Positions 35,205-63,436 of a stretch of 64,000 nt of DNA are shown here, piece after piece. Position numbers and translations under genes: made by a program. Below the pieces are notes generated by a model. The model worked only from the letters and a program-made list of their open reading frames with translations. It was not told the DNA's origin and ran no database searches. Source of the DNA: a virus; IMG/VR virus record IMGVR_UViG_3300042924_005659. One strand, written 5' to 3'. Each line of letters opens with the position of its first letter. Position 1 is the stretch's first letter.

Positions 35205-35609
35205 TCAGTCTTTGGCTTTGGTGGGCTTGTTATCCATCATACTTAGTAGTTTGTCTACAAGCAAGTAGCCGCCTACTCCTCCACCGCCTGCTCCCACCAA
35301 ACCTCCCAAAGCGCCATAAGTAGCAACATCCTTTACTCTATTGCTGATATCGGTGCTTAGTCCGTACAACGCATTGGTAGTACCTGCTCCAAGAGCTGCT
35401 CCATTCCACGCACCCAAAAGAGCGCCTACGTCAGCACCTAGGCCTTTTGCAGCGCCTCTAAGTATCCTGGACATGCGAACCTTGTCCTCAGGAGCAGTCA
35501 GGCCGTGAGCCAACGCACTGATGGTAGTGGCTATCAAAGCCTGCTTGGTAAAGTCGCTTTGAGTCTGGTGTGCCTTAAGGGCCTGAAGATTGTTCGCCAG
35601 TTTAATCAT
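35205..35609 (-). CDS. Glycine-zipper membrane protein (putative virion)
   Basis: GxxxG-rich helices; N-terminus MIKLANNL. Confidence 0.65.
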   Translation of the reverse strand: MIKLANNLQALKAHQTQSDFTKQALIATTISALAHGLTAPEDKVRMSRILRGAAKGLGADVGALLGAWNGAALGAGTTNALYGLSTDISNRVKDVATYGALGGLVGAGGGGVGGYLLVDKLLSMMDNKPTKAKD

Positions 35610-36133
35610 TCTTCTTGTGCGTACATGTCCGGATTGAGGTAGGGCATCTCCAATCCGCTTGCTGCGCCTCCGCCTGCTCCAAGCAGAGCTCCAAGGCCAA
35701 GACCGATCAGGGCCTTATCTACTCCGGGAGTTCCGCCCTGACCTTCCATAGCATCAAGGCCTAAACCAGCCAGTGCGCCTATTGGAGCTGCTGTGAAGCC
35801 TCCCTTCAATGCGCCCATCAAAGCTCTTCTCAAATAGTTTGGTTTATCAGAACGAGTAATGATGTCTTCGTTTTCGTAACCCGCCAGAGCATTACCTAAG
35901 GCTCCGCCGACACCGCCAATTAAACCGCCTGCTCCTGCACCCAGTAAGCCCGTCGCCAATGCGTTCGGCACATTGCCAGACGAACCAGCTGCGCCAAGCA
36001 GAGCACCATATAGGCCTCCAGCTAAAGCTCCGCCGCCACCGCCAACTAGGGCGCCTCTAGCAAGACGCTTTTTATAATCTACTTCGCGAGCAGCCTGTTT
36101 AAATGAAGGAACGTAATGAGAGTATGGTGTCAT
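35606..36133 (-). CDS. Glycine-zipper membrane protein (putative virion)
   Basis: Multiple GxxxG helices; N-terminus MTPYSHYVPSFKQAA. Confidence 0.7.
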   Translation of the reverse strand: MTPYSHYVPSFKQAAREVDYKKRLARGALVGGGGGALAGGLYGALLGAAGSSGNVPNALATGLLGAGAGGLIGGVGGALGNALAGYENEDIITRSDKPNYLRRALMGALKGGFTAAPIGALAGLGLDAMEGQGGTPGVDKALIGLGLGALLGAGGGAASGLEMPYLNPDMYAQEE

Positions 36134-36146
36134 GCTTAATATCCTT

Positions 36147-37238
36147 TTATTGAGTTAGAGATGAATTATAGCTATTAGCGTTATTTCTAGCTAATGTGCC
36201 AGCTGGTGGCTTAGGCCCTAGAGTGGAAGTTAGTCCATAGTGCGTAGCAATTGGAGCAAAGTCATCTCCATAATAGTTTCTCATACTGGCATAGAATCGC
36301 GAGTTATTGACGGCGTCTTGCGCAGACTGCACCGCATTAGGAGAATATGCGGCAGTTGGCAATTGTGTCATAGCCTGCTGTACGGTTCCCTGTATAGCTC
36401 CAGGTATGGACTTTAACTGGTTTATGGCGCCGTAGCCCAGAGTCTTGCCTACAGCCCCTATAGGACCAGAGGATAAAACTTTGGCTGCTTCTGTAGCGGC
36501 AGTAAAGGCATTATGCGGTTTAGGACTGCCCATGGAACTGGCGAATCTTGCATCTATGGGATTGCTGCCACCTTGACGATATATGTAGTGGTAGGGGCTG
36601 GAGAGATATTCTTTTCCAGCGTGCAAAACTCCGCCCCAGCCCATCTTGTAGGCCAGTCTATATGCATCTTCAGGAGAGTATCCAGCGTCTAATAAAGACT
36701 GTATGGCCTCGACTTGGTAGTTATTTATATTCTGCACTGCTGAAGCCGCTGCACCAATAGTATCTCCAATTACTTTAGGTACGGTTAAAGCAGCAGCAGG
36801 ACGTGCTACAGTTTTAAATACTTGTCCTGCCCTAGCTGCCGTAGGCAGGGCATAGCGAGCAGCCCCTGTAGGCGCTGCTACAAAGCGAAGAGCATGTGGG
36901 GCTACGGGAGCTGCAAGGGCCAATCCTGCTCCTCCAGCTGCAGCTCCGCTGACTCCCAAAGACGCAGCTGCTGCATCTAACAGAGGGTCTTTATATTGAA
37001 GCTCTAGCTGATTTGGACCTGGTAGCGCGTTGTATACTCGACGTACAGTATCTACCCATGGGGAATCATCAGCATAATCTGAGCCAATACGCCCACCGGT
37101 CCAGTAGTGTGCTGCTCCACTAAATGGCTCTACCAGCTGAGAACCAAATGCCTTTACACCTTCCCATAAAGGATTCTCCTCCGCACGCTTGATGCGGAAG
37201 GAGTGCAAGGCAGAAAGATTGTTGGCCAACTTTATCAT
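36147..37238 (-). CDS. Ala/Gly-rich putative internal virion protein
   Basis: N-terminus MIKLANNL...KRA; shares ELQYxDPLLD with 46665-48635. Confidence 0.65.
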   Translation of the reverse strand: MIKLANNLSALHSFRIKRAEENPLWEGVKAFGSQLVEPFSGAAHYWTGGRIGSDYADDSPWVDTVRRVYNALPGPNQLELQYKDPLLDAAAASLGVSGAAAGGAGLALAAPVAPHALRFVAAPTGAARYALPTAARAGQVFKTVARPAAALTVPKVIGDTIGAAASAVQNINNYQVEAIQSLLDAGYSPEDAYRLAYKMGWGGVLHAGKEYLSSPYHYIYRQGGSNPIDARFASSMGSPKPHNAFTAATEAAKVLSSGPIGAVGKTLGYGAINQLKSIPGAIQGTVQQAMTQLPTAAYSPNAVQSAQDAVNNSRFYASMRNYYGDDFAPIATHYGLTSTLGPKPPAGTLARNNANSYNSSLTQ

Positions 37239-37882
37239 TATTCAAATTTGTTGTATTTATCTATTATAGCTTTAAACTTAGGATTTTTCATGGCGCGCTG
37301 CTTGGCAACATGTTGGCCAGCCAGACTGCCTAGTAACGATGCCAAGCTTGCTGCAGCTCCACCCTCAAGAATTGGAGTAAGCGTCTTGCCAAATCTATCA
37401 TGACCAGCAAGATAGCCGGCGCCTCCAGCACCTAGTCCAGCAAGCAAAGCTGCAGTAATCCCCCAGTTTCTACCAGAGCGATTTATATCATTTAGCAGTT
37501 GCTTTTCTGTTTTATTAAAAGTATTTAAAGCAGCATCGACTCGTTCTCGCTCTTTGGAGAACAGATGTAGTTGGCCCAACAGTTTACCTATACCTAAACC
37601 TGCAAACATGCCGGCAGGCCCTGCAGTCAATCCACCTATGGCAGCACTAGGCAAACCGTAGGCTCCTTGATAAAGAGCGGTATCTCCAAGCTCCCACAGT
37701 CTTTGTTTGTTTAAAAGCGTAGGCCCAAAGAACTGCTGTTTAAGATCTTCGTATCCTCTGAACGGAGTTTGTTCGGGGCTGTGATCCTGTACCGCTACTG
37801 TTTCAAGTACATCTCCTGGCAGATGAGATAACTGAGCTACCTGTTCTACAGCTTTGGAGATGTTGTTAGGCTTCTTGGCCAC
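37238..37882 (-). CDS. Glycine-zipper membrane protein
   Basis: AAIGGLTAGPAGMFAGLGIG; AGLGAGGAG; hydrophobic helices. Confidence 0.65.
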   Translation of the reverse strand: MAKKPNNISKAVEQVAQLSHLPGDVLETVAVQDHSPEQTPFRGYEDLKQQFFGPTLLNKQRLWELGDTALYQGAYGLPSAAIGGLTAGPAGMFAGLGIGKLLGQLHLFSKERERVDAALNTFNKTEKQLLNDINRSGRNWGITAALLAGLGAGGAGYLAGHDRFGKTLTPILEGGAAASLASLLGSLAGQHVAKQRAMKNPKFKAIIDKYNKFE

Positions 37883-37884
37883 GA

Positions 37885-40800
37885 TTACTTACCTAGTATC
37901 TTTACGGTATCTGTTGGGCTTAGCTCACCGCGATTAAACGCCTTTATGACATCGTCCTTGGTTTGGAAGACCTTGACGTTGTCTTTATCGGGAGCCTTTT
38001 TGCTAGCTAAATAAAGACCGTATAGGAATTCGTTCTTTATGAACGGCTGCGCTTGGAACGTAGCAGCGGACATTAGGTTACGGCTAGGCAGCATGCGCTC
38101 GTAGGCTTCGGCTACTGCCTTCTCAGAACTAGGTACGTGCAATCGCATCTGGTCTCCGTCGAAGTCTGCGTTAAAGCCTACGACTACGGAAGGAGACAAC
38201 CTTAGCGTACTGCCAGTGGTAAGCTTGGGGCGTGCTGCCATGAAGTTGTACTTGTGCAGAACCGGAGCACGAGTGATCATCACCGGGCGGCGTTCCATCT
38301 CCGAAAGCAAGGCTCGACGGGCCGTAGGAGTACGGCTCTCCACCTGCTTCATGGCTTCCAAGGGATTGGCTCCAGAAGCCACCAATGCCCTTACTACATA
38401 TGGACGGAAGACAGAGAAAGCCATGTCTTCCGGTACTCCAACGTGGTCCATGTCCAGCGAAGGATCAGGGGTAATTACAGCATTTCCTACGCCTTCTACC
38501 GTGGAGCTCAGTACCTTGCGCTGGAACATCGAGAACTTGGGATTGCTGCCCAGAATATGCCGAATAAGGCCGTTGACGTTCTTCTGCTTCAGCTTAGCGC
38601 TGGCAGGATCGGCAAGACCTACGGTTGCCTTTAACATCTTATACAGAGCCAGGCGCTCCTTGCCTGTAGCTTCCTGGCCCAGCTCAGACTGCAGCTCCTT
38701 CAAGTTGCCGTTCATGCTGAACAGCTCCTTGTATAGGTAGTTCATATCCGAGACCATCTGCATGTTGCCGGTATCGGTAATGGGTCTAAAGCGAGGAGGC
38801 AGCACAGGCATGTCTTCCCAGAGGAAGTCACTAGGCTTCAGCTTGCGCTTCTGCATTCCTTCCAGATATGAAAGCTTGGAAATAGCATTGCTGCGCTTCT
38901 GGCCCTTCGATGCCGTGATCTCCCGACGAGTCTGGTCTATCTCGTTGGGAATATCCAGAGTTGCAAGCTTGGCCTCCAAGCCCTGCATGCCCTTGATGCC
39001 CTTTACGGTCTCGCCTGAAACGACGGACTCAAAGTCCTTCTTGGTCAAACCAGTCAAGGAACGAACCACGTCCTCCATGACTGGATTGACCATCTTGGCA
39101 GCAAGAGGAAAGTGTCCGAATGAAGACTGATTGACTCCGAAGATCTTCTCGTCGAAGAAGCCGCCGTCATAGGCCTTACCGGTTTTGAAGTCTATATCTC
39201 GGAAGTCCTTTACTTCTCCTCCAGACATCTTCTTAACATCGGAGCCACTCATGCCATAGATGTTTACAGCTCCGCCTTGGCGTTCGACATTTACTCCAGA
39301 GCCCTTGAGCTGAGCTACGAACTTGTCCCAAACAAATGGAACGTTGACCGAAGGAACTGGAGTTCCGGTCTTGATAGCTCTCCAGTACTCGTCGTTCTTC
39401 TGGCCACGGATAAGTCGGGCGTCCTTCAAGACCTCGATTGCACCGTGGGCCAGAATGGCATTCATGTCAGAGATCGAGATGCGCTTGGCGCCTTCTTCTC
39501 CGCCCTTGACTGGAGCTTCTTCGGTGCTGTAGCCGCCGGTGTCACGAGCGCTCAGCTTCTTCTCTGCCTGGTGGTGCAGGTTCATGAAGTAACGAGTGCC
39601 GGTAAACACATTGTCTACATTTCGGTTCAACCGAGGATCATAGATCGTCTCGGTATCCGCCATGCCGGCTTTCTTCAGCTCTCGCTGAGCGAAATCGATG
39701 AAGCTCTCGTCCATGAACGCCGGAAGTTTGACGGGCTGCCCGTTCTTAGCGGCAATCTTGCCCATTGCGGCTTCCACGGCCTGCACAGGGTTAACGCGAG
39801 TGACAAGAGCCAGGGGATTATAGATGACTTCATACGAGTTACCGTCCTTATCCTTTGGCATGTCTGCGTCAGGAATAATAGTGGAAATTACACCCTTGTC
39901 TCCGTATCGACCTACCAGCTTGTCTCCAACGGACATCGGCTTGTAGGACTTTACCGCTACTTGGTATCCACTGCGAGTCTTGGTTACGTTGGTAACTACT
40001 CCTGGCTGGCTGTGGTCCCAGGTCTGAGCACGGTTGGTATAGCTTGGCCGAGCCTTCTTCATCAGGCCGAACGTATCAGACTTACGCTCACCTACGCCTA
40101 GGATAATAGGATCGCCAGGATTAAGCACGGTGCCCGGCTTGACCACACCTGTTGCGGAGTCAAGGTTCTTGAGCTGATCCTTGTTGTACTGGCCGGGAAA
40201 TAGAGATACAAACTTGCTAAAGTTGGCTTCGTAGTCGTCCTTGCCGTCATAGCCGACGGTGTACATGTGCTCGGAGGACATCTTCTTTGCGGCGGATTCA
40301 GACATTACCACGCCGTCTTCGAAGTTGGAGCCTCCAAGCTCCGGATCTCCCCATACCGTATAGGCCACCTTCAGATTGCGACCCATGGCCATTCTGCCCT
40401 GATCGTCAGAATAGTTGGACTTAGCCAACAGCTGTCCGGGCTTGATCTGGTCTCCGATCTTGACCATCGGAGTGTTATGGATATAGGTCTTGCGATTGAA
40501 CGGAAAGTTGTTGTACAGCTCGTAGCGACGCTTTTCCTTGCCGTGCTTTACTTCGACGTAGTCCGGAGTTACCGCAGTAACCAAACCGTTGCCGAATTCC
40601 GGCTCCGACTGTACTGCGCCAAGGTGAGGAACCAGTTGCTCCTCAAACGACTTGCCTTCCGGATCATTGGGATCTAATCCCTGTACCAGGGGCGCTTCGG
40701 CCTCCTGGACAGGTAACGCTTGGGTAAAGTACTTGGAGCCCATGAGCAGTCGGCCACCCTTGATTCCAGAAATACCTGGAACAAGATTGGAGTTGACGTT

Positions 40801-42807
40801 GAACATGTTGCTGTAGGCAGGCACCTCGTACTCGACCTCTGCAGGATCGACATAGGAAATGCGGCCACGCACCATGGCTCTTACAGGATCTCCGGTCTTT
40901 GCCGAGCGTGCGAGTTCTCCTGGAAATGCGACTATAGAGTCGGTCAGTGTACGGGCAGCCACAGGTTCCATGGCTCCTGTCTTGACCTTGCGCATCTTGG
41001 AGTAAATCTGACCATCAGCTCCCTTGTAGGAGCCTACGGTAAGTCTAAGGTCGATACCTACTTTATCGGATTCCGGAGTACGTACCGGATCCAGGAAGCC
41101 TAAGTGAGAGGGCTGCACCGAACGGCTATCTACTGGAATGCCGTGTGCAGCGGAGCCTATGCCGCCTTCTCCGGTGCGGATAACTCTCATGTTCTGGTCC
41201 AGGATCTCCATCGGATTGACTTCCTCGATGGGAGCTCCCAGTCCGGAACCAAGCAATACGCCATTCAGTACAGGAGTGAATACTCCGTTCTTGAAGGCAT
41301 TGAGATTACCCTTGTTGGTAGCCTTGAACATGGCGGTGCGTAGAGTTGCACCTGCGTCCTTTTCAATGCGCTCTGAGAAGAAGTCCTCTGCGCTCAGGAA
41401 CTTCTGATAGGCCAAGGAGTCACGGTCGTCCTGATCCTCAAAACCCTTTTGAGCATTTAGAATCTTCTGAGATGCCCGCAGCAGAGTATTGCCGGTAATA
41501 CGGCCGAAGTCCTCTTCATTCAGCTGAAGCTGTTCGTAATCTGCGGCATCAAAGCCGGCAGTTTGCGGTGCTGCCTGCTTTTCGGTTAATAGGTCATTGA
41601 TGTCAGAGGCGACCTTTACACCTACTGCCAACCGGAATCCACCGCGAGGCTTGGCCTCCAACAGGAGACTTCTGCGCAACTGCTCAAGTTCCGGGCACTC
41701 GATATCGATGCAGTACTCTCCGTTGCTTGGAGGCAGCACTCCACGGATCTGATAGGTGAATCTACGGCCGGAGCCACAGGTGGCCTCAAAGCTCTTCTTG
41801 AATACTTTCTTCAGCTGACGAATCTCGTCACTAGTGATTACTATCAGCCGGCCCTTGTCGTTGACTGGGGCAATTGCCGGAGATTTATCGGAATCTCGCA
41901 GGGCATAGAACACTCCGTCAACCAGACCGGCAGGTACGGTTATGTACCCGGTGTCTTCTATCTTGAGCGTTCCGCGAATAGGCACATCTGCCTTTTTGCG
42001 AAGGGCTCCGGCATAGCTCAGAGTGCGTCGGGTAACCTCAGGATCAAGCTCCGTGGAATTCAACGCATCTTTGATTCCCTGGTAGATAGTATTGTCATCT
42101 AGTCCCTTGGAGGGATTGTTAGTAAGACGCTCATATATACGTGCTGCGTCATAGCTGGAGCCGAGCTTATTGGATTCCAGCAATTCCTTGCCCCAGGTTC
42201 TCTCCAGCACCGAATCATCGACGCCTAAAGCCTTGAACATGGGATAAGCTGGAGCAACGGACTGGCCTATCTCAGCAACAAACTTTCCCGTATCAGGCAT
42301 GAATGCAACGCGAAAACCACGACCCTTGCCGGGCATGGTGTTGAAGTGCGCCTCAAACTCACCGGACTTTCTCTTGCGGACATATGGTCCTGCAAGAAGA
42401 CGAGACTGATTAGCAACAGTGTATTCGCTGCCAGCATTTATGAAAGTACCACGGTCCGTAAGATAGGGAACACGAGCCAAGGTTATGGATCTGTCCGTCT
42501 GGTCCATTACCTGACCAGTGGCATTGTCCTTCATTACAAGCCTGCCTCTAAGAGGAACAAAGAGGCTTTGATTTTGCATCAAGGCCTCTTGCTGTTCTTT
42601 TAGAGAATACGGCTCTTCTCTGCCGTAATGAAGATCCGCAGCCTCAATTGTGTAGCGGGCATTCTGAAGCGGGAACTTCTTCGCCACCGCATTACGCACT
42701 CCATCAAATATGTTTTTACGAGTAGTGCGATAATCGCTAAAACCCCTCAGCACCGGGGCAAGAGGGGTTACGAGTTGGTTTAAGTCGTCTGCGCCGGGCG
42801 TAGGCAT
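37885..42807 (-). CDS. DNA-directed RNA polymerase: fused beta subunit plus catalytic N-terminal half of beta-prime (1640 aa)
   Basis: Beta motifs PYLTDRGTFI, HLGFLDPVRTPE, LMGSKYFTQALP, NFEDGVVMSE, GDKLVGRYGDKGVIS, YFMNLHHQ, GAKRI; beta-prime motifs GFFDEKIFG, PVLPPRFRP, SDMNYLY, RAPVLH, NADFDGD (38152-38172). Confidence 0.93.
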   Translation of the reverse strand: MPTPGADDLNQLVTPLAPVLRGFSDYRTTRKNIFDGVRNAVAKKFPLQNARYTIEAADLHYGREEPYSLKEQQEALMQNQSLFVPLRGRLVMKDNATGQVMDQTDRSITLARVPYLTDRGTFINAGSEYTVANQSRLLAGPYVRKRKSGEFEAHFNTMPGKGRGFRVAFMPDTGKFVAEIGQSVAPAYPMFKALGVDDSVLERTWGKELLESNKLGSSYDAARIYERLTNNPSKGLDDNTIYQGIKDALNSTELDPEVTRRTLSYAGALRKKADVPIRGTLKIEDTGYITVPAGLVDGVFYALRDSDKSPAIAPVNDKGRLIVITSDEIRQLKKVFKKSFEATCGSGRRFTYQIRGVLPPSNGEYCIDIECPELEQLRRSLLLEAKPRGGFRLAVGVKVASDINDLLTEKQAAPQTAGFDAADYEQLQLNEEDFGRITGNTLLRASQKILNAQKGFEDQDDRDSLAYQKFLSAEDFFSERIEKDAGATLRTAMFKATNKGNLNAFKNGVFTPVLNGVLLGSGLGAPIEEVNPMEILDQNMRVIRTGEGGIGSAAHGIPVDSRSVQPSHLGFLDPVRTPESDKVGIDLRLTVGSYKGADGQIYSKMRKVKTGAMEPVAARTLTDSIVAFPGELARSAKTGDPVRAMVRGRISYVDPAEVEYEVPAYSNMFNVNSNLVPGISGIKGGRLLMGSKYFTQALPVQEAEAPLVQGLDPNDPEGKSFEEQLVPHLGAVQSEPEFGNGLVTAVTPDYVEVKHGKEKRRYELYNNFPFNRKTYIHNTPMVKIGDQIKPGQLLAKSNYSDDQGRMAMGRNLKVAYTVWGDPELGGSNFEDGVVMSESAAKKMSSEHMYTVGYDGKDDYEANFSKFVSLFPGQYNKDQLKNLDSATGVVKPGTVLNPGDPIILGVGERKSDTFGLMKKARPSYTNRAQTWDHSQPGVVTNVTKTRSGYQVAVKSYKPMSVGDKLVGRYGDKGVISTIIPDADMPKDKDGNSYEVIYNPLALVTRVNPVQAVEAAMGKIAAKNGQPVKLPAFMDESFIDFAQRELKKAGMADTETIYDPRLNRNVDNVFTGTRYFMNLHHQAEKKLSARDTGGYSTEEAPVKGGEEGAKRISISDMNAILAHGAIEVLKDARLIRGQKNDEYWRAIKTGTPVPSVNVPFVWDKFVAQLKGSGVNVERQGGAVNIYGMSGSDVKKMSGGEVKDFRDIDFKTGKAYDGGFFDEKIFGVNQSSFGHFPLAAKMVNPVMEDVVRSLTGLTKKDFESVVSGETVKGIKGMQGLEAKLATLDIPNEIDQTRREITASKGQKRSNAISKLSYLEGMQKRKLKPSDFLWEDMPVLPPRFRPITDTGNMQMVSDMNYLYKELFSMNGNLKELQSELGQEATGKERLALYKMLKATVGLADPASAKLKQKNVNGLIRHILGSNPKFSMFQRKVLSSTVEGVGNAVITPDPSLDMDHVGVPEDMAFSVFRPYVVRALVASGANPLEAMKQVESRTPTARRALLSEMERRPVMITRAPVLHKYNFMAARPKLTTGSTLRLSPSVVVGFNADFDGDQMRLHVPSSEKAVAEAYERMLPSRNLMSAATFQAQPFIKNEFLYGLYLASKKAPDKDNVKVFQTKDDVIKAFNRGELSPTDTVKILGK

Positions 42808-42824
42808 AGAACTTGTACTCTAGC

Positions 42825-43832
42825 TTAAAGCTTGAACTTTGGCTTACCTTCTTCAGACTCTTCGAGATCAATGCCAGAAGACAAAGCACCAGAGGCAATG
42901 TCTCGCTTTAGCATGCTTTGCAACGTCTTCAGTTTTGCCTTCTCAGGATCGTCCTTCATCTTGTTGTTCATCATCCACCAACCAAGCAATGCCCCGACAC
43001 CAGGAGCAAGACCCAAGGCATAAGCAGCACCTGGAATGCTGAAACCTGGACCGTGAGGATCCTTCTCTGTAACTATTCTATCGGGAGAAATTGGATCGAA
43101 TGCAACCTTGGTAAGTGCGTCGATCTGGGCTTGAAGATCAGAAGACTGCTTTGAAAGAACCTTTTCAAATTCTTTTTTAGCCTTATCAATCTTCTTATCC
43201 ATCTTAGCTTTGCGCTGCTGATCCACTAAACGAGTACCCAGCATAAAAGTAAGAATACCTGGAGCCAGCACGGCTGCAGGAGTAGCCATACCATACAGCA
43301 TAGGTTCCGTAAGATACTCTCCGAGAGTTGTAGCTGACTTGTCGGCAGAGGATTTCGGAGACTCCATGTCTTCAATCACATCGGCAGAAAGATCTGAGGT
43401 TAGCTCATCTGCCTTTTCCGGAAGCATGTCTGCTGGATTGGAGGCCTGCTGTTCAGAAAGCAGATCTTCCAACTTATGGCTCTTTGGAATAGCTATACGC
43501 TTTTCCATGCGCTTGGCTCTGCCCTCTTGGCCAGGCAAACCAAACATGGATTCGTCGTGGAGGTATTTTGAAAGACCGTAAAGACCTGCGCCGCCTAATC
43601 CAATACCTGCGCTAATTGCAGCATAGTTAAGAAGTTGTCTTACGTTGGGATCCATAGATTCCTTCTTGCTTTCAGGCAGGTCTTCATGCTTGGTTCCGGC
43701 AAAATCTCGTACGTCCTGTTCAGACATACTAGCAGCAGCCTCTTCAGCCTTTCCAGAGCCGATAGCTTTGCCTTCTTGAATGGCTTTAACCAAGCCAAAA
43801 AAGCGTTGTTGCTTTTTGCTTTGAGCAGGCAT
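42825..43832 (-). CDS. Putative virion protein with DUF3008-like N-terminus and glycine-zipper helices
   Basis: MPAQSKKQQRFFG...ASMS...DFAGTKHEDLP resembles DUF3008 (from memory); three hydrophobic segments. Confidence 0.55.
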   Translation of the reverse strand: MPAQSKKQQRFFGLVKAIQEGKAIGSGKAEEAAASMSEQDVRDFAGTKHEDLPESKKESMDPNVRQLLNYAAISAGIGLGGAGLYGLSKYLHDESMFGLPGQEGRAKRMEKRIAIPKSHKLEDLLSEQQASNPADMLPEKADELTSDLSADVIEDMESPKSSADKSATTLGEYLTEPMLYGMATPAAVLAPGILTFMLGTRLVDQQRKAKMDKKIDKAKKEFEKVLSKQSSDLQAQIDALTKVAFDPISPDRIVTEKDPHGPGFSIPGAAYALGLAPGVGALLGWWMMNNKMKDDPEKAKLKTLQSMLKRDIASGALSSGIDLEESEEGKPKFKL

Positions 43833-43835
43833 TAA

Positions 43836-44366
43836 TTAAATTCCTAGTTTGCTTGAAAGCGAGTCTCTTAGTGCAGCTAGAAGATCTTGCTGCTCAGCCT
43901 TATTTAGCCGGCTTTCGTATCTACGCTCAAAAGCCATTGGAGTGTTGCTTGTGTTCAAGGCCGATAGAGCATCTGCAGCATCTACAAACTGAGAGAGGTA
44001 AGGACTACGCGCAGGAGAAAGATATCCTTCTCCGGTTCGCATGGGGAAATCTGCTCTTAGTTTTGCTAAGTCAGCCTTAGTACCCTCGATATTAGCCTTC
44101 TGATCGGCTAGAGAATAATCTCCCAGGGCCTTGGCTCCAGCGCCCAATCCAGCACCTACTCCTCCGCCGATAAGAGCACCCTTAAGCTTAGATTCTCCGC
44201 GCAATGCGTTAATCAAAGCACCAACGCCAGCACCGGCAAGACCTCCGCCACCTGCATAGATTGCGTAGTCCTTAAGCAAGCTGTCTGTTGGGTTAAGTGC
44301 AGCAAGAGCATCCTGCACAGTAATGTTGGATTGCTTGAGAGTCGGCAGATAATGGGAGTAGGTCAT
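43836..44366 (-). CDS. Glycine-zipper membrane protein
   Basis: GGGLAGAGVGALINALRG...GALIGGGVGAGLGAG; N-terminus MTYSHYLPTLKQS. Confidence 0.7.
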   Translation of the reverse strand: MTYSHYLPTLKQSNITVQDALAALNPTDSLLKDYAIYAGGGGLAGAGVGALINALRGESKLKGALIGGGVGAGLGAGAKALGDYSLADQKANIEGTKADLAKLRADFPMRTGEGYLSPARSPYLSQFVDAADALSALNTSNTPMAFERRYESRLNKAEQQDLLAALRDSLSSKLGI

Positions 44367-44773
44367 TAGGTAGATTCCTTTACATTGTTCGCATTTGTGT
44401 TAATGCGCATTATATCCATTTCATACAGATAGAGGTGCATTTCTTCAGCCGGAATTTGCAATAGAGCGTAGTACTTTATCCACGAAGTCCAGTTTTCTTT
44501 GGACTCAACCCACTCTGCAACCTCCGTAAAATCACACCATCCTCTGTCTTTCCATTTTACCAAAACATCCACTAATTGGTTGTACTGAGCCAGCTCCCCA
44601 TCTTTCCAGAGGCAGAACTGTCTAGAATTAAAAAATGGAGTTTCTTGTGGTCGTTTGTCTTGGCTGTCGTTTTCTTTAACTATTGGCGACACCGAGCCAA
44701 AGAATGGCGGGTCACTCAAGTTCTGGTGCTTAAAGTTAAATAACGGTACGTCAGCAGGGGATCCAATAGTCAT
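44366..44773 (-). CDS. Hypothetical protein
   Basis: ORF track; operon packing. Confidence 0.6.
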   Translation of the reverse strand: MTIGSPADVPLFNFKHQNLSDPPFFGSVSPIVKENDSQDKRPQETPFFNSRQFCLWKDGELAQYNQLVDVLVKWKDRGWCDFTEVAEWVESKENWTSWIKYYALLQIPAEEMHLYLYEMDIMRINTNANNVKEST

Positions 44774-45069
44774 GGAGGAGACTGTACCTTATCAATCTCT
44801 TCTTGTACCTTTTTACCTATTTCTTTTGCTTTAGCGGCTGCTGCTTCGCTCATGGCGGCTCTAGTAGCCCGGTATTCGTTGGAGCCGAGGTATCCCAGAC
44901 TTCCTCCGGCCAATGCACCTAGAGCTCCAGAGCCTAGACCTAAGCCTAAAGTTTGTTTAGTTTTGGGGGTTAAAAGTTTGTATAAACCATAACCGCCAGC
45001 GCCACCAATGCCGGCACCTAATAAAGCATACAATAGATCGTTAGAGTCCAAGGCAGACAGCTTTTGCAT
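44770..45069 (-). CDS. Glycine-zipper membrane protein
   Basis: LLGAGIGGAGGYG; LGLGLGSGALGALAGGSLG. Confidence 0.7.
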   Translation of the reverse strand: MQKLSALDSNDLLYALLGAGIGGAGGYGLYKLLTPKTKQTLGLGLGSGALGALAGGSLGYLGSNEYRATRAAMSEAAAAKAKEIGKKVQEEIDKVQSPP

Positions 45070-45416
45070 TACGCTAGTCCAGACTGTACCAATTTCTTGG
45101 CATTGCGATATTTGGCCAATAGGTGCAACTTCTTGGCTTCTTCTACGGCGCTATAGTTAGGAAGAATAGAGTCGTCGGGATCCAACTCAAACTTAGCCTT
45201 ATTGTAAAGGTAGTTGCTAAGAGCTCCCGCTGCAGTACCTCCAAGCAGACCCAAAGAGCCAAGGAGTAGCCCAGTATGCAGGGTATTCTTAGCTACATCG
45301 TCTACTCCGGATTGCTTATAGCCAGAAAAAGACATTAGTTCCGAAGGGAGGATTCCTAGTTCGGCAGCCTTTTCGCAAAAGCCTTGTCTAAATTCTTGTA
45401 GTTCTTCGTTGGTCAT
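45069..45416 (-). CDS. Membrane protein with glycine zipper
   Basis: GFCEKAAELG; GLLLGSLGLLGGTAAG. Confidence 0.65.
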   Translation of the reverse strand: MTNEELQEFRQGFCEKAAELGILPSELMSFSGYKQSGVDDVAKNTLHTGLLLGSLGLLGGTAAGALSNYLYNKAKFELDPDDSILPNYSAVEEAKKLHLLAKYRNAKKLVQSGLA

Positions 45417-45447
45417 AGTGTAATTCTACCTTAGTTAATAAAATTGC

Positions 45448-46668
45448 TCAAAAGGACAGCTTGCCTAGATTGATCAATGTACCTAGGGCTGCTCCTGTGC
45501 CTTGCATTAGTTTCTGCTCATTTGGCTTAAGATTAACAAACATACCTATGCCTTTGGCTGCGGCGGTTCCAGCAACAGCGCCTGCACCAGCTCCAATAGC
45601 AGCATGAGCGATATCCCTCACCGTAAACCAGGGCTTGTTGGATTCCCGGCTTGCACGAAGCATAAGTCCAGCAGCCTGGCCGTAGTCGACATACCCTGAG
45701 CGCATCTGTTCGCTGACCACGTCGGCTAAGTGAGTCCTAGCTATCTGCATGTCCATAGGTATATAGGAACCATTCTTAGTGGAACCCTTACCTTCAGCAA
45801 CAAGAGCATTAGACCCGGTCGGAATTATACCTGAGCGCCTGCGAGAATCTTGCTGCATATTTTGCTTGTCTGCTTCGGTATAGTTTTCGTTCTTCGGCAA
45901 AGACATTCTGGAGATGTCTGCCATGGTAGAAGGAGCGTTAACAAGCCACGGTGCACTCATACCGCCCAAAGCAGCCAAAGCCATCATGGCCTTTTCCTTG
46001 CCTCTAAAACGCTCCGGGAACATGTACTTAAGTACAGGAATTGCAGCTAAACCTAAACCTGTAAGCCCTACACCTGAAACAAGGTTTCCAAATCGAGTCT
46101 GTGCAGCAGGAGTAAAGCTGCCCTCGTTGTACCAAAGCCCTGGGCTATAACCCAATGCCCGTGATAGATCCGATGTCAGTGCGGCATTCTTATATGCAAA
46201 TGGAGTTGGGCTCATCTTTTTACGCATATAGTCTGCCGTGGCGGGATACAGCTTTTCAGCAGCAGTGCCGCCGACAGGCGTTTGTTGTTTGCTCTTTTCT
46301 CCCACCTGTTTTGTTGCTTTGGTAAGGTCTGCCTTCATGCTGCCAAACAAAGAGGGAAGTTTGACATAGCTGCCATCGCCACCTCCAGAAATGTTAGGCA
46401 TTCCAAATCCAGCGCCAATGCTAGTCGCAGCAGCAGACTCTTTGCTAGGAGCCTGACCTAGCTCTAAGTTGCCTATTACGTTCTTAGGAACGTGAATCTT
46501 GAAGTTGGTGGCGCTATGCGTCAAACCTACAATTCCATCCTTCTCAGAGTCTACGTAGAACTCTTTTGGAGCCTTGAGCACCAAATCGTGAATCAAGTCA
46601 TGCTTCTGAGAGTACTGTTTGGCATCAGAAAACTGCTTTGCTCTTTTAAGGTCTTTAAGTACGCTCAT
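45448..46668 (-). CDS. Putative virion protein with hydrophobic/glycine-zipper segments
   Basis: ORF track; KESA, KNAA, KNG motifs separate the domains. Confidence 0.6.
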   Translation of the reverse strand: MSVLKDLKRAKQFSDAKQYSQKHDLIHDLVLKAPKEFYVDSEKDGIVGLTHSATNFKIHVPKNVIGNLELGQAPSKESAAATSIGAGFGMPNISGGGDGSYVKLPSLFGSMKADLTKATKQVGEKSKQQTPVGGTAAEKLYPATADYMRKKMSPTPFAYKNAALTSDLSRALGYSPGLWYNEGSFTPAAQTRFGNLVSGVGLTGLGLAAIPVLKYMFPERFRGKEKAMMALAALGGMSAPWLVNAPSTMADISRMSLPKNENYTEADKQNMQQDSRRRSGIIPTGSNALVAEGKGSTKNGSYIPMDMQIARTHLADVVSEQMRSGYVDYGQAAGLMLRASRESNKPWFTVRDIAHAAIGAGAGAVAGTAAAKGIGMFVNLKPNEQKLMQGTGAALGTLINLGKLSF

Positions 46669-48635
46669 GGAGAGGTCTCCTCGGCAGGCTGCATGTTTTT
46701 GTACACTTCGCTCATTATTGGTTGTAGCTCAGCTAGCGTCTCCGTAAACGGAACCTGCCCAGAAGACGGATTTTGCTGAGCGGCGCTCAAGCGACGAGCC
46801 CCTTCGAGCAACTCCTGATATCCGCTAGGAGCTTGACCTGTTTGCCGGTAGCTGTCATGCATCGCAGACAACATCACGTTAAGGTTGGCCAGCTGAGCAG
46901 TAGCTCCAACTACCGCTTCCGGATTACCTCCGACCAAGCTTGCGACTGGAGACTGCATAAGGTGACGGCCTAGTGGAGAGGACTCTACTTGTGAAGGATC
47001 TTGCTGCAGAGCACTCAAAGCATCGTACAGCCTAGGATCCTGCATAGCTGCCCCAGGAAGGTTCAACATTCCGCCAGTCAGTTCGGGGGCCAGGCTGCCC
47101 ATTCGGAACGTAAGGCTCTGCTGCATTTTCTGTCTAGCCTCAGGAGAAGCTTTTGCTAAAGCCTCTTGAACGTTTGGATCCTGCATCGGGTCCTTGCCTG
47201 TCGCAAACGCCTCTGCAAATGGAGCCCAGGCAGTTCCTGCCGCTATTTCGTCCTGGTTTAAGTCCTCTGAGTAACTGCGAGCACCTAAAGCTCGGAAGGG
47301 ATTAAATGAAGTGCCTTCCGCAAGTCCAGACACGTAAGAGTATGAAGGATTGGCGGAGTTAAACGCATCTGTAACTTCAGTTCTTATTTGATTCAAAGCC
47401 GCGGGATTCTCTTGCACTAAAGCTTGATCCTCAGGAGACAAAGAAGCTACCCGATTAGCTACAGCCTGATCTATAGCTGCAGAACCTTGCTGAGCCAATC
47501 CGGGCATAAAGGCACTCGCCCCTATTCCGTATGGGTTTAGCGAAGTAGGATCAAATGAAAAGCCTCCTGCAGCAAGGGACTCGGCAAAACGTCTAGCAGA
47601 GGCAGGAGTGCCCGCTAGCTCTGGATTAACTTGATTGAAAGACTGCACATCTCTTATAGCATTGGCGTAGTTTCTTGCTGCTCCTTGAGTAGCCAGGTGT
47701 GCTCCTAATTGACTAAACGGCAACGCCCAACTAGATCCAGCAGTAGCGGCGCCAGTTAGCAAGGGAACCGGATTTATTCCAGATACGGCATAATTTAAAC
47801 TTGATGGAACCGACCTACCTGCAAATCTAACAACAGGACTTGCAGCAGTCTGCATTACCGGCTGAAATCCTTGACTCAAAGCTTGGCCGGTTGCTCTAAG
47901 AGCACTGGGCGCTACGCTCTTAGCGCCTTGTACTCCAGCCTGGCCAGTTGCTCTAAGAGCACTGGGCGCTACGCTCTTAGCGCCTTGTACTCCAGCCTGA
48001 GCAGCAGCGCTTCCTCCTGCCGTTCCAGCCATCATCAAAAAACTTGGAGCAGCCTCAAGCGCGTAGCTGGAATAATCCAAAAGAGGATCGTTGTACTGCA
48101 GCTCAAAATTTCCACCCCAACGATTTGCAACTCGCTTTCCAGCATCTGCAAGCATGCTGCCATACACGGCATCAGACTTAGCCTTATCGGCAGATGCCTG
48201 GTTGAATCCCTTCGTAGCGACGTCGTAGCCATACATAAACGGAGCTGTAGGCATGACAGGAGATCTAGCCAGGTCTCCAATAAAGGCTCCTGTTGCACTA
48301 GGACTTGGAGCAACAGCGTTAGGGTTTACTGGAGCAGCACCTCTAGCTTGTGCCTCGTAAAGTCTAAATCGATTTCTTAAATCAATCTGCTCCTGAGACA
48401 TCCCTGTTCGTTCAGAGCCTTTATAACCCCAACCTTTAGTGCTGTAAGTGTAATCCCCGTAAGGAAAAGCACGAGCATACTCAGACTCCAAAGCCTTACC
48501 TTGAGCGGCAAGCTGAGGATCTATATTAGGCCGGTTGTAATAACCAGGCGGCTGAAACGCCTTGCCTGCGGTCTCCGTAGCGGAGGTGTACCCAGGAGCC
48601 TGAGCTTTCTTTATGTAGGAACTGTACGGAGTCAT
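46665..48635 (-). CDS. Ala/Gly/Gln-rich putative internal virion (ejection) protein
   Basis: 656 aa; N-terminus MTPYSSYIKKAQ; internal 19-aa tandem repeat. Confidence 0.6.
   Translation of the reverse strand: MTPYSSYIKKAQAPGYTSATETAGKAFQPPGYYNRPNIDPQLAAQGKALESEYARAFPYGDYTYSTKGWGYKGSERTGMSQEQIDLRNRFRLYEAQARGAAPVNPNAVAPSPSATGAFIGDLARSPVMPTAPFMYGYDVATKGFNQASADKAKSDAVYGSMLADAGKRVANRWGGNFELQYNDPLLDYSSYALEAAPSFLMMAGTAGGSAAAQAGVQGAKSVAPSALRATGQAGVQGAKSVAPSALRATGQALSQGFQPVMQTAASPVVRFAGRSVPSSLNYAVSGINPVPLLTGAATAGSSWALPFSQLGAHLATQGAARNYANAIRDVQSFNQVNPELAGTPASARRFAESLAAGGFSFDPTSLNPYGIGASAFMPGLAQQGSAAIDQAVANRVASLSPEDQALVQENPAALNQIRTEVTDAFNSANPSYSYVSGLAEGTSFNPFRALGARSYSEDLNQDEIAAGTAWAPFAEAFATGKDPMQDPNVQEALAKASPEARQKMQQSLTFRMGSLAPELTGGMLNLPGAAMQDPRLYDALSALQQDPSQVESSPLGRHLMQSPVASLVGGNPEAVVGATAQLANLNVMLSAMHDSYRQTGQAPSGYQELLEGARRLSAAQQNPSSGQVPFTETLAELQPIMSEVYKNMQPAEETSP
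47884..47997. repeat. 57-bp in-frame tandem duplication
   Basis: Two near-identical copies starting 47884 and 47941, encoding GQAGVQGAKSVAPSALRAT. Confidence 0.9.
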
Positions 48636-49295: not shown

Positions 49296-49721
49296 ATGAT
49301 TCCATACGCTCATTGTAAACAGGCGGCTCTATTTGAGGGAGCCAACTCCGACGGACTGCAAGGTCTTAGGGCATTAATTGGAGCTGGACTTGGCGGAGTA
49401 CTAGGAGCAGGTTTAGGTGCAGGTGGAGGGTTACTTAAAGAAACTTTCTTTACTCCTGCAGATCAAGCTCAGTATCTTCGCAGAGCTTTACAAGGTATGA
49501 GCCTTGGAGGTTTGGCAGGTGCGGGTATTGGAGCAGGAGTGGGTGCAAGCAATATAGGTAAGGGTGTACAAAATGCTTTAGAGGATTCTGCGGCTAGAGC
49601 CAACACTAAAATGTTGCAATATGTTGTTGACGCTCTTAATGCCGTTGAAGTAAAAGGCCTAAGTCCACTTGTAGGTACCCCTACGTTTGGGATTAAAGAA
49701 AAGGAAACGACTAATGAATAA
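49296..49721 (+). CDS. Glycine-zipper membrane protein
   Basis: Start re-assigned to MIPYAHCKQAA; GAGLGGVLGAGLGAGGG; GGLAGAGIGAGVG. Confidence 0.65.
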   Translation: MIPYAHCKQAALFEGANSDGLQGLRALIGAGLGGVLGAGLGAGGGLLKETFFTPADQAQYLRRALQGMSLGGLAGAGIGAGVGASNIGKGVQNALEDSAARANTKMLQYVVDALNAVEVKGLSPLVGTPTFGIKEKETTNE

Positions 49722-50469
49722 ATCCGCACAGTACAACCTACTTCGTTATTATCTAATGCAAAAGCTTGCTGCAGAATGTGACTGCGGTATGGATGAAGAA
49801 AGTTGCGACTGCGAGGAGTGCAGCAAAAAAGCCTTTCTAGGCTTATTTAGCAGCGATCCCAGTCCTAACGAAATCTCTATTCCTGACCCTTCTGATAGTG
49901 ACGATCCTGACGTTGAAGTAGAGAAGTCCCTTAAAAATTTAGGCTTTACCGATATTCAACGCCACATGTTTACTCCTTACGTGAATCCATTTACGGCGAA
50001 GGGCCCGGATGGAAAATACTACACGATAGATTTAGATGAAGATGAAAATGTTTGGAGGTCTAAATCTATCAGCGATATGTACGGAGTAGATTCTGTTGCA
50101 GATCTTCCCGATCCGTACAATAGATCTGAGCCTAGATTGGTGCGTTATGCAAGTAAAAAAGCAGATACTTCTTTATTGACTGCTAGTCTTTTAAAGTGGG
50201 CGGCCTCTTCTCCAGCCTGGCAGCGTTCCGAGGGTAAGAACCCGGAGGGTGGTCTCAACGCCAAGGGCAGAGCTAGCTACAACAAGGCTACTGGTGGCAA
50301 CCTGAAGCCTCCGGTGAGCGCTGAGGCTGCCGATAAGAGTCCAGCCAAGGCCAAGCGTCGTAGCAGCTTCTGTGCCCGTTCTGACGGCCAGCGTCGCATG
50401 CACAACATCGATTGCTCCAAGACTCCAGACAAGAGAATCTGCTTGGCCAGAAAGAAATGGGACTGCTGA
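49714..50469 (+). CDS. Putative virion protein with C-terminal DUF6321-like domain
   Basis: AWQRSEGKNPEGGLNAKGRASYN...RRSSFCAR...ARKKWDC, a widespread phage motif (family name from memory); start MNKSAQY. Confidence 0.55.
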   Translation: MNKSAQYNLLRYYLMQKLAAECDCGMDEESCDCEECSKKAFLGLFSSDPSPNEISIPDPSDSDDPDVEVEKSLKNLGFTDIQRHMFTPYVNPFTAKGPDGKYYTIDLDEDENVWRSKSISDMYGVDSVADLPDPYNRSEPRLVRYASKKADTSLLTASLLKWAASSPAWQRSEGKNPEGGLNAKGRASYNKATGGNLKPPVSAEAADKSPAKAKRRSSFCARSDGQRRMHNIDCSKTPDKRICLARKKWDC

Positions 50470-53215: not shown

Positions 53216-53601
53216 CTCCTTATCACTACAACGTACTTCAGGTCATGCGAGTAGTAGACGGAGATACTGTCGATATGCTGTTGGATCTGGGCTTCTCTAT
53301 TTCCATTAAACAAAGAGTAAGGTTGAAAGGAGTCGACGCTCCTGAGATACTTACTAAAGATGCGACCGAGCGCAAGATGGGCTACGAAGCCAAGGCATTT
53401 TTGGAAAGAAAGCTAATGCAGAATGGCAAACTTAAAGTAAGCACCTTCAAAGATGACAAGTATGGGCACCCTCTTGCCGTCATCTACATGGAAGGTGAGG
53501 AAGCCTCGATCAATCAGCAGATGCTTGAACTTGGCTACGTATGGGCCTATGACGGGGGCAGCAAGATAAAAGACCTGGAATCTCTAAGAAAACCCGAATA
53601 A
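53212..53601 (+). CDS. Thermonuclease (SNase-like) family nuclease
   Basis: RVVDGDTVD...RVRLKGVDAPE...DKYG..LA...INQQMLELGY. Confidence 0.85.
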   Translation: MTPYHYNVLQVMRVVDGDTVDMLLDLGFSISIKQRVRLKGVDAPEILTKDATERKMGYEAKAFLERKLMQNGKLKVSTFKDDKYGHPLAVIYMEGEEASINQQMLELGYVWAYDGGSKIKDLESLRKPE

Positions 53602-58303: not shown

Positions 58304-58429
58304 ATGTTCTCCTGTGGCTGCGGAGTGCAGCGCACGGAGCATAAGCATAGACATCGAGGCTTGTCAACTGTTGATACCTAAAAGAAAGCCAGGGTTTTAC
58401 CCCTGACTCTCTTAGGCACCGCCAACGGG

Positions 58430-61573: not shown

Positions 61574-63436
61574 TTATTGCGGAGGAGGCGCTGGCTGCCG
61601 CAACTGATCTTTGCCTTGGTTCTCGGCTTGCTGAGTGATCTGATCCAGCATGCTCTTGACCACGGCATGCATATTGGGATCCTGACCCTTGATCTGATCC
61701 AGGATCTGCCTGCGTTGCGGAGAACCCAAGGGGGCAGTTGCCATGATCTCATTGACTCTGGCCTGAGCATCGGCAAAGAAGCTGTCCAGATCTTTGCTTG
61801 GACCTGCTGCCATGGGGCCGGCAACTCCATTGATTGGCATTGGCGGAGCTCCGGGAGCACCTCCAAGGCTTGGACCTCCAGGTATGGCCCCTGCTCCCAT
61901 AGGAGCACCGGGACCTGCGATCATTGCACCTGGAGGAGCCGACATAATCTGCTCGTTCTCCTCCGCCTTGCGCATCTTGTCCATGTACTCCTTCTCGGAG
62001 CGCATCTTGAATTCCTGCTCGGACTGGCGCTTCTTGAAGGTATCCTTCCAGTCGAGACCAAAGAGCGTAAGTACATCCTGCTCTGCGGCCACACCCTGCA
62101 TCATCATCTGCAACATGAGCATACGGCGCTCGATGTCGTCCGCATGGGTAGGTCTGGTGAGAGCTACTTCGCACGGAATCCAGTTGAGGATAGCGCTGAT
62201 GCGATCTACCAGCCACGTAAGCGTAGTCTGTAGCCCGTGCAGGAAGTGAGTTTCTCCTGCTTCGAATAGTCTTGCAGCAAACGGAGCAGCCTGAGCACTT
62301 AGAGTCTTTCTATACAGCTCGACCGGCACTCCTAGCCCGTTGAGGAAGTCGGCCTGGGCTTGTTCCAGCAGCTCTGGAACTACAAATGCCTTGCCCTCTC
62401 CTCCCAGCAGCTGATAGTTGACCGGGAGCGGCATCCACTGCCAGCCAGTTGGATCTTTTCTGGCTCGTTCTACTGAACGCATTACCTGTTGGCCGAAGCT
62501 TCCTATGTTGACGGACTTCATGAAGTCCCCGCCAACACCTACGGAAGCAGGCGTAACCATTCTAATTGGAAGCATGTGATCCAATGCGATGCTTTCGTTG
62601 TTTCTCTTCAGGATCTGCGCAAGATAGGCATCACGGAATCCTGCGATGACAGGAGGCAGCCCCCAATTGCCCATCTTGATGTCGCTGAGATTGCCCAACG
62701 AGAAGTGGTGCACCATGTTATCGCTGAATTGAAACAACGTTCCTGAACGCACAGATTGCACTAGGCCCCAAGGTACGCTCTCCAGGTACTTCTTGTTTCC
62801 TGCCTGTATCTGCTGTACGTCTTGCGGAGGCACTTCGTAGAAATAGTCTGGCTTTCCGCCGTACTGGTGAGCTACAATGCGCATCTGCTTGATTGGCCAG
62901 CGCTTGATGTAGATCTCGTTCTCCTGTAGCGTAGGCCGATCGTCCGGATTCATGCAGCTGCTGTTCTTGCCGCAGCTTGGGCACTGGAAATTAAACCCGT
63001 GGTTGATGGTAAACTTGTAATCCAGGGTTTGAATCGGTCTGCTGGCACCGCAACTATTGCAAGTAAGGAATCTCTTGAAAGGCGCCAGGACGGATACGCA
63101 GCTGTTTCCGTAGACCTTTACGTCTCGGCCTATCATGAACAGCAACGTCTTCAAGTCCAGTTTTTCAACTAAAAACTTCTTGTACTGATTGGCCTTTTCC
63201 TCGTCATCCGAAACAATGTTTATGTCCGTGCCTGTGAAGTAGCTGACCACATACTCTACAGCTTGCGCAAAAGTACGGTTGCTGTAGTACATGGTTTCCG
63301 CAATCTCAAATGCCTCGTTTAGATTGGTAGGCAGGTGCAGAGATGCGTAGTCCAAAAACGGGCTAGGAGCATGCTCGGCATGCGCTAGCTGCCTTCTTCC
63401 AGACATTTGAACGGACGACGACGAAAAATCAGGCAT
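61574..63436 (-). CDS. Probable portal protein with Zn-ribbon insertion
   Basis: 620 aa; portal-like progression (YYSNRTFAQAVEYVVSYF...IGRDVKVYGN...MVHHF...WGLPPVI...ESIALDHMLPIR); CNSC/CPSC; Gln/Pro/Gly-rich tail. Confidence 0.65.
   Translation of the reverse strand: MPDFSSSSVQMSGRRQLAHAEHAPSPFLDYASLHLPTNLNEAFEIAETMYYSNRTFAQAVEYVVSYFTGTDINIVSDDEEKANQYKKFLVEKLDLKTLLFMIGRDVKVYGNSCVSVLAPFKRFLTCNSCGASRPIQTLDYKFTINHGFNFQCPSCGKNSSCMNPDDRPTLQENEIYIKRWPIKQMRIVAHQYGGKPDYFYEVPPQDVQQIQAGNKKYLESVPWGLVQSVRSGTLFQFSDNMVHHFSLGNLSDIKMGNWGLPPVIAGFRDAYLAQILKRNNESIALDHMLPIRMVTPASVGVGGDFMKSVNIGSFGQQVMRSVERARKDPTGWQWMPLPVNYQLLGGEGKAFVVPELLEQAQADFLNGLGVPVELYRKTLSAQAAPFAARLFEAGETHFLHGLQTTLTWLVDRISAILNWIPCEVALTRPTHADDIERRMLMLQMMMQGVAAEQDVLTLFGLDWKDTFKKRQSEQEFKMRSEKEYMDKMRKAEENEQIMSAPPGAMIAGPGAPMGAGAIPGGPSLGGAPGAPPMPINGVAGPMAAGPSKDLDSFFADAQARVNEIMATAPLGSPQRRQILDQIKGQDPNMHAVVKSMLDQITQQAENQGKDQLRQPAPPPQ

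Follow-up and report, generated by a model that had tools for sequence, protein, structure and literature searches.

What kind of RNA polymerase does a phage encode when its beta subunit continues, without a stop, into the catalytic half of beta-prime? The question is raised by one open reading frame (ORF) in a 64,000-nucleotide stretch of viral DNA (IMG/VR record IMGVR_UViG_3300042924_005659), the whole of which is referred to below as the window. A preliminary description, made from the letters of the window, had proposed that this ORF holds the ordered motifs of a complete beta, to about position 39300, and then those of beta-prime up to and shortly beyond the NADFDGD motif, that the beta-prime zinc finger is deleted, and that the half of beta-prime carrying the bridge helix and trigger loop lies outside the ORF. 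We consider it probable that the ORF specifies the large chain of a two-polypeptide, bacterial-type phage RNA polymerase (RNAP) that is packed in the virion and ejected with the DNA.

One reading frame carries beta and the catalytic half of beta-prime

The ORF (P0001; Table 1) lies on the minus strand, which places beta at the high coordinates and is the only correction that the preliminary description requires. Its 1640-residue frame is uninterrupted, with neither a stop nor a frameshift between beta and beta-prime, and contains four Pfam domains in the expected order, Rpb2_3 (residues 528-591), Rpb2_6 (755-1095, E 3.6e-44), Rpb1_1 (1291-1379) and Rpb1_2 (1505-1571, E 5.8e-26). Of the profile hidden Markov models suggested for mapping, those of the RNA_pol_Rpb2 series and Rpb1_1/2, these four were matched, and those of the C-terminal part scored well above their cut-offs. 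When Protein Data Bank (PDB) chains were searched with phmmer, residues 431-1179 aligned with residues 370-1147 of the 1193 in Bacillus subtilis beta, residues 1265-1628 with B. subtilis beta-prime 163-530, and residues 1273-1629 with 189-550 of the 625 residues of cyanobacterial gamma (RpoC1). E values against bacterial beta and beta-prime ranged from 1e-44 to 1e-55. Identity to the bacterial subunits is 25-28%.

Pfam recognised no family in the first 520 residues of the protein. For residues 1-560, AlphaFold gave a model with a predicted local distance difference test (pLDDT) score of 85.7 from a family alignment of 54 sequences. Foldseek matched it to the N-terminal half of bacterial beta along some 550 columns (E 1e-17), and because of this match we regard beta as complete, as had been claimed, despite the failure of Pfam to see its lobes. 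Modelling, which had been proposed as a check, was also applied to residues 1100-1640 (pLDDT 82.4), for which cyanobacterial and plastid RpoC1 and bacterial beta-prime were the best Foldseek matches (E 1e-30).

At the boundary between the two modules, the last conserved element of beta ends at about residue 1177, the first conserved segment of beta-prime (B. subtilis 14-56) aligns with residues 1185-1227, and a linker of only some 6-8 residues separates them. As beta-prime starts at residue 1185, beta must end near residue 1180, at coordinate ~39268 and thus close to the original estimate. The catalytic lysine motif of beta, GRYGDKGVIS, occupies residues 966-975; its K971 and the aspartates D1548, D1550 and D1552 of NADFDGD are invariant in a 21-member family alignment. 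With Rpb2_6 and Rpb1_2 in the same polypeptide, one chain has, by homology, both double-psi barrels along with the catalytic lysines and the aspartates that bind Mg.

Two features set the beta-prime module apart from its bacterial counterpart. After IFG, the six residues VNQSSF (1225-1230) stand in place of the zinc-binding domain, and the domain is absent from 21/21 aligned members, so that the deletion first read as IFG-VNQSS-FGH is a family trait. In addition, the module stops about 25 residues short of the TTVG motif, at approximately B. subtilis beta-prime 540. Residues 1353-1398 retain the clamp helices, on which sigma chiefly docks in bacterial beta-prime. Gaps of only 17 nucleotides upstream and 2 nucleotides downstream separate the ORF from its neighbours on the same strand, and for this reason it is probably co-transcribed with them.

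Table 1. Features of the fusion gene and its surroundings in the window
Feature	Position	Strand	Residues	Basis or detail
Whole ORF, RNAP beta plus N-terminal half of beta-prime (P0001)	37885..42807	minus		1640 amino acids, ATG start, no internal stop
Beta module: lobes, rifampicin-pocket region, double-psi barrel, flap, C-terminal clamp element	39268..42807	minus	1 to ~1180	Pfam, PDB phmmer, AlphaFold
Variable slot in beta with 2H-phosphoesterase-like domain	41518..42120	minus	230-430	
Counterpart of the rifampicin-binding segment of beta	41161..41241	minus	523-549	HMMER alignment to mycobacterial and E. coli beta
Beta/beta-prime junction GVNVERQ-GGAVNIY-GMSG	39244..39297	minus	1171-1188	Last conserved beta element, linker, first beta-prime element
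Beta-prime N-terminal module: clamp without zinc-binding domain, clamp helices, double-psi barrel	37888..39255	minus	1185-1640	Pfam, PDB phmmer, AlphaFold
Site of the missing zinc-binding domain, IFG-VNQSSF-GH	39112..39144	minus	1222-1232	Sequence alignment
NADFDGD, catalytic Mg-binding motif	38152..38172	minus	1546-1552	88 residues before the stop
Block of 12 co-oriented, almost cysteine-free genes including the polymerase	35205..48635	minus		Cysteine counts
Portal protein gene	61574..63436	minus		tblastn with Arash portal gp204, E 3.6e-47

The fusion and its early end are conserved in a phage family

In the 21-member alignment, which spans 31-86% identity, the length of the junction is constant to within one residue. 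To look further afield, residues 1100-1640 were used in a HMMER search of 1.84 billion cluster representatives, and the 150 best matches were considered. All 150 of these 50%-identity cluster representatives (E <= 1e-116) match from query residues 1-8, that is, still inside beta; the matches start at protein positions of roughly 900-2300 and most of them, those in which no intein intervenes, end within about 10 residues of the query end. As judged by these alignments, fusion and truncation are common to at least 150 clusters at 50% identity. A word-indexed protein search listed, two shorter fragments aside, more than 100 chains of ~1360-2800 amino acids with both Rpb2_6 and Rpb1_2, many of them on contigs of 140-220 kb.

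The same fusion is present in three independently sequenced cultured phages, and in the cultured Salmonella phage Arash the corresponding protein, gp206, was covered to 100% by peptides in virion mass spectrometry (PMC10585845). Since the junction is conserved across the 21 members and the 150 representatives, which come from independent assemblies, the fusion is not an assembly artefact; we see virtually no chance that it arose by faulty assembly or sequencing, or as a recent pseudogene-like accident that joined an rpoB-like to an rpoC-like gene, and nothing was found that favours such an origin.

Arash gp206 (1525 amino acids) and gp216 (606 amino acids; OQ632216.1) reproduce the order Rpb2_3, Rpb2_6, Rpb1_1, Rpb1_2 with a separate Rpb1_5 partner. 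Like the window protein, gp206 lacks the zinc-binding domain, and Arash, like the complete relative G001 described below, has one polymerase set and no alpha, in a genome of ~180 kb. Unlike the window protein, gp206 has no 200-residue insert in beta, and the two large chains are 30% identical. Vibrio phages D69, D148 and D181 share this layout. In the published records gp206 is named 'subunit beta' and the D69 gene 'hypothetical protein', and the fusion is not described there.

The presence of a portal gene identifies the window as phage DNA and places the polymerase in a morphogenesis region. No nucleotide similarity of the window to GenBank phages was found. Over its whole length the window is collinear with an IMG/VR contig, G003. 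Seven IMG/VR viral contigs carry polymerase genes with 73-90% identity to the fusion polymerase; among them is G001, a contig of 183,468 bp that has direct terminal repeats and was rated as complete. It could be argued that the ORF is bacterial DNA, for example an rpoBC fusion of the Helicobacter/Wolbachia type truncated by assembly, given that the 25-28% identity to bacterial beta and beta-prime nearly equals the identity to the Arash protein. The portal gene, the collinearity with viral contigs including a complete one, the real and family-wide stop of the ORF, and the absence of the zinc-binding domain and of alpha all speak against this origin, to which we attach a negligible probability.

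Inteins with LAGLIDADG domains interrupt the fusion gene in many relatives, including P0027 and P0028 (locus L007, on G001). That of P0027 sits just before Rpb2_6; in other relatives the query with residues 1100-1640 shows breaks near its positions 322-333 and 453-466, the latter adjoining NADFDGD. A homing-endonuclease gene splits the fusion gene of Vibrio phages D148 and D181.

The remainder of beta-prime is encoded by a separate gene in relatives

The bridge-helix/trigger-loop half is missing from the ORF, as had been stated, and from the entire 64-kb window, neither of which has Rpb1_5 or a partner-like sequence; tblastn of the window with Arash gp216 and with the partner ORFs of G003 and G001 gave nothing better than E 0.3. 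A 656-amino-acid ORF at 46665-48635, similar in size, was considered as the partner and rejected: it is unrelated (BLASTP E 0.079) and has no Pfam or PHROG match. G003, G001 and Arash each contain one ORF of ~620 amino acids with Rpb1_5, located 34-38 kb downstream of the fusion gene in G003 and G001 (34 kb in G003). The G003 partner begins MDPSLTTVGQ; from its tenth residue on it can be aligned with mycobacterial beta-prime 666-1170, a stretch that takes in the bridge helix and the trigger loop. Because the first chain ends about 25 residues before TTVG and the partner starts there, the two genes together amount to a complete beta-prime minus the zinc domain. Position 53335 of G003 corresponds to position 114 of the window, and the partner gene of the window phage is therefore expected ~2.8 kb beyond the left end of the window.

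We propose a polymerase of two polypeptides in place of the usual beta, beta-prime, two alpha and omega. Chain 1 comprises all of beta together with beta-prime to just past the catalytic barrel, and hence both barrels, the lysines and the Mg-binding aspartates; chain 2, from a separate gene of ~620 codons outside the window, would begin at TTVG and supply the bridge helix, the trigger loop and what remains of beta-prime.

One polymerase set, no alpha gene and a candidate sigma factor in relatives

In both the complete relative G001 and Arash there is one Rpb2_6 region, one Rpb1_2 region and one Rpb1_5 ORF. A search for bacterial alpha (RNA_pol_A_bac, PF01000) found no match in either genome, with matches in 14/14 control genomes, a result that does not exclude the use of host alpha. 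The covalent tether between beta and beta-prime may replace the alpha dimer as the assembly device and, as the sole polymerase of the phage, the enzyme would probably also serve later transcription.

Retention of the clamp helices leads us to expect that the polymerase probably uses sigma-like factors. Arash has a clear sigma gene. In G001 nothing was found with Sigma70_r2; a 266-amino-acid ORF (L020, G001:C1:13382-13918) has a weak, below cut-off match to the sigma70 family TIGR02937 (E 3.4e-7, 26.5 bits) and is a candidate divergent sigma factor for the polymerase.

The polymerase is also predicted to differ from bacterial enzymes in its response to rifampicin. D516, H526 and S531 of E. coli rpoB are sites of rifampicin resistance, and their equivalents in the fusion protein are E, Q and I, for which reason the polymerase is probably insensitive to the drug. 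The alignment was made with a 121-residue piece against the PDB, with query residue 24 equal to E. coli 511, and matches were returned only at E 1e-4 and none at stricter thresholds.

Probable packaging in the virion and delivery with the DNA

In purified Arash virions gp206 is the top protein by spectral count (3516 spectra, compared with 1333 for the major capsid protein), gp216 is among the top five with 1210 spectra, and the sigma factor gp10 is in the particle as well (PMC10585845). The surroundings of the polymerase gene in the window are unusual in composition: the block at 35205-48635 encodes 6 cysteines in 4448 residues (0.13%), where ~64 would be expected, as against 201 in 13,855 (1.45%) in the rest of the window. 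Ten genes that neighbour the polymerase are cysteine-free; the polymerase core is cysteine-free across the family, as are the G003 and G001 partner proteins, and the three cysteines of the fusion protein (344, 366 and 371) all fall within the insert in beta. Several block proteins have glycine-zipper segments, with weak Pfam matches to Gly-zipper and DUF3008, and N-termini recur among them (MTPYSHY, MTYSHY or MTPYSSY at 36133, 44366 and 48635; MIKLANNL at 35609 and 37238). From these properties the block genes are candidates for virion-internal or ejected proteins, and we interpret the cysteine depletion as fitting a shared constraint on proteins that would cross the tail and the envelope.

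The single set without alpha, the abundance of the Arash chains in virions and the cysteine-poor block are the reasons why we favour a two-chain, alpha-less polymerase that would be packed in the capsid, ejected with the DNA and able to transcribe the genes of the phage without relying on the host; packaging and alpha-independence are both inferred. A number of points weigh against this proposal. That abundant enzymes may co-purify with particles is conceded in the Arash study itself (PMC10585845), and the proteomic basis for packaging is that of Arash only, whose polymerase is 30% identical and which lies outside the clade of the window phage. The polymerase gene stands 19 kb from the portal gene in the window, whereas in Arash and D69 it closely follows that gene, directly so in Arash, and the polymerase N-terminus lacks the leaders that recur among its neighbours. 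Cysteine avoidance has other possible causes. The partner gene of the window phage is placed by synteny with G003 only, and the SNF2 helicase gene next to the Arash partner gene has no counterpart in G001 and G003. No sigma factor turned up when 48 further ORFs of the window were scanned with Pfam. Finally, the function of the polymerase chains is a prediction for every member of the family.

Several of these points would equally be accounted for if the same two-chain polymerase were a non-virion enzyme made after infection, comparable to the non-virion RNAP of phiKZ or to the presumed enzymes of the mReC phages and Kleczkowskaviridae, with host RNAP reading the early genes and the Arash signal representing carry-over. 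The carry-over alternative, the distance from the portal gene, the N-terminus and the origin of the proteomic data in a phage outside the clade are all compatible with such an enzyme. It is harder to reconcile with gp206 being the most detected protein, and gp216 a top-five one, in purified virions, with the location of the gene in a co-oriented, almost cysteine-free block of the kind that a shared constraint would produce, and with the presence of only one polymerase set per genome in G001 and Arash. We therefore hold a purely post-infection role to be unlikely, while granting it a real share of the probability.

Comparison with known polymerases

RNAPs of the phiKZ/AR9 type come as virion and non-virion enzymes in two paralogous sets, without sigma factors (PMC7598289, PMC7824862). 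They resemble the window enzyme in consisting of phage-encoded relatives of beta and beta-prime without alpha or omega, in a beta-prime that is split shortly after the barrel, and in the packaging of one of the enzymes in the virion. They differ in that beta is split into 2-3 pieces and nothing is fused, whereas the window phage has beta whole and fused and its relatives have a single set and sigma-like genes. In PHROG searches the phiKZ-type families matched far more weakly than unnamed families (1.7e-23 versus 1e-51).

The nearest PHROG-type relatives are the mReC phages and Kleczkowskaviridae (Rhizobium phage RHph_TM30), tailed phages with cell-like, alignable subunits. Neither a fusion nor a split has been reported for mReC phages (Weinheimer and Aylward, 2020; PMC7481178), and in contrast to the window phage these viruses have separate genes for beta (1009-1563 amino acids) and whole beta-prime (915-1127 amino acids). 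Membership of the window phage in the mReC group was considered and rejected on this ground, as the contigs of that group carry separate beta and whole beta-prime genes; moreover, the tables of that study list none of the IMG/VR sample numbers of the family members used here.

Cyanobacterial and plastid RpoC1/RpoC2 also divide beta-prime after the catalytic barrel and provide the best structural matches of the beta-prime N-terminal module. The break in the window protein falls about 65 residues before the RpoC1/RpoC2 break: the chain ends near residue 560 of the 625 in gamma, ahead of the TTVG motif that gamma keeps. Cyanobacterial gamma is not fused to beta and, unlike the window protein, retains the zinc domain.

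In the rpoB-rpoC fusions of Helicobacter and Wolbachia, and in those engineered in E. coli, the C-terminus of beta is likewise tethered to the N-terminus of beta-prime. These fusions extend through all of beta-prime and still work with alpha. By comparison with a full-length RpoBC, the window chain stops at about B. subtilis beta-prime 540, the stop is conserved across the family, and no alpha is found in the relatives searched. The contrast that the preliminary description had drawn, both with full rpoBC fusions and with the split subunits of phiKZ-like phages, is correct.

Single-chain polymerases with two barrels are known from crAss-like gp66, YonO and the tape-measure-fused RNAP of P23-45, and some of these are delivered by the virion (PMC10770324). 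They have diverged strongly and are without most of the domains of beta and beta-prime, whereas the window protein aligns with the bacterial subunits from end to end. We found no description of a fusion of beta with the N-terminal part of beta-prime accompanied by a separate C-terminal part, in a literature search that did not cover subscription journals.

A variable slot in beta

The insert in beta of the window protein occupies a slot that varies widely within the family, from 25 residues in compact relatives, and 27 in Arash, to as many as 466 in others. Relatives carry Pfam 2H-SAK in this slot with intact HISV and HITF motifs. At the corresponding positions the window phage and its close relatives have RLIV (320-323) and RLAV (392-395) in place of HxS/T. 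Pfam gave no match for the window insert at E <= 1, and BLASTP against the insert of P0069 was weak (E 9e-4); the region is well folded in the AlphaFold model. The insert is probably an inactive, degenerate 2H-phosphoesterase domain.

Other accessory domains have been placed in the beta slot of relatives, namely SET plus 2H-SAK, DUF5661 plus 2H-SAK and LNS2-like plus 2H-SAK (among P0045, P0040, P0055 and P0048), and P0040 has a GNAT acetyltransferase at the N-terminus of the polymerase.

More speculatively, the polymerase might be an ejection protein threaded through the tail, whose tether evolved for scaffold-free assembly and whose beta slot (in some members the N-terminus) serves as a cargo site for delivering 2H phosphoesterase, SET methyltransferase or GNAT acetyltransferase enzymes into the host at the start of infection; the polymerase would then double as an injected polyvalent protein. 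We put this forward tentatively, and rate it as considerably less probable than the two-chain enzyme proposed above.

Other genes of the window

PHROG annotation of the ten neighbours of the polymerase is almost empty. A 57-residue DUF3008-like module heads the gene at 42825-43832, just upstream of the polymerase, and PHROG 10538 matches both the N-terminus of this product and the C-terminus of that of a plus-strand ORF at 49687-50469. By these matches, small modules appear to be shuffled among these proteins.

Two giant minus-strand ORFs, at 1-10995 (more than 3665 amino acids, open at the edge of the window) and 10997-17326 (2109 amino acids), carry RCC1 or RCC1-like beta-propeller repeats, with Pfam E values of 5.6e-70 and 9.4e-13, respectively. 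They are situated between the polymerase block and the predicted gene for the C-terminal part of beta-prime, and G003 has more divergent versions of them. When the 48 small ORFs between 17753 and 61528 were scanned together, the Pfam families found included DUF6321, staphylococcal nuclease, ankyrin repeats, destabilase-type lysozyme, AAA_33 kinase, pyrimidine-dimer glycosylase, dockerin and 3'-5' exonuclease. A metallophosphoesterase is encoded at 57623-58354.

Implications

The fusion is real: it belongs to a multisubunit phage RNAP whose subunit architecture is undescribed, and the window holds one member of a large family and not a singular case. To our knowledge, no cellular RNA polymerase joins its two large subunits without a platform of the alpha (or Rpb3/11-like) type. 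Known phage multisubunit enzymes consist of four or five fragments. The family would represent a third solution to assembly, in which one chain holds the two barrels tethered to each other and a second supplies the mobile bridge-helix/trigger-loop module.

Similarity to bacterial RNAP is sufficient for residue-by-residue modelling of the enzyme, which also has a cultured representative in Arash, a phage of Salmonella Typhimurium. The enzyme could prove a tractable minimal system for studying assembly without alpha, the need for the zinc-binding domain and for alpha itself, and the packing and tail delivery of a two-chain assembly of ~250 kDa. Packaging and alpha-independence can be tested in cultured Arash. 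Corrected annotation of the two genes would shift the view of these phages, from viruses that depend on the RNAP of their host to viruses that are transcriptionally autonomous.

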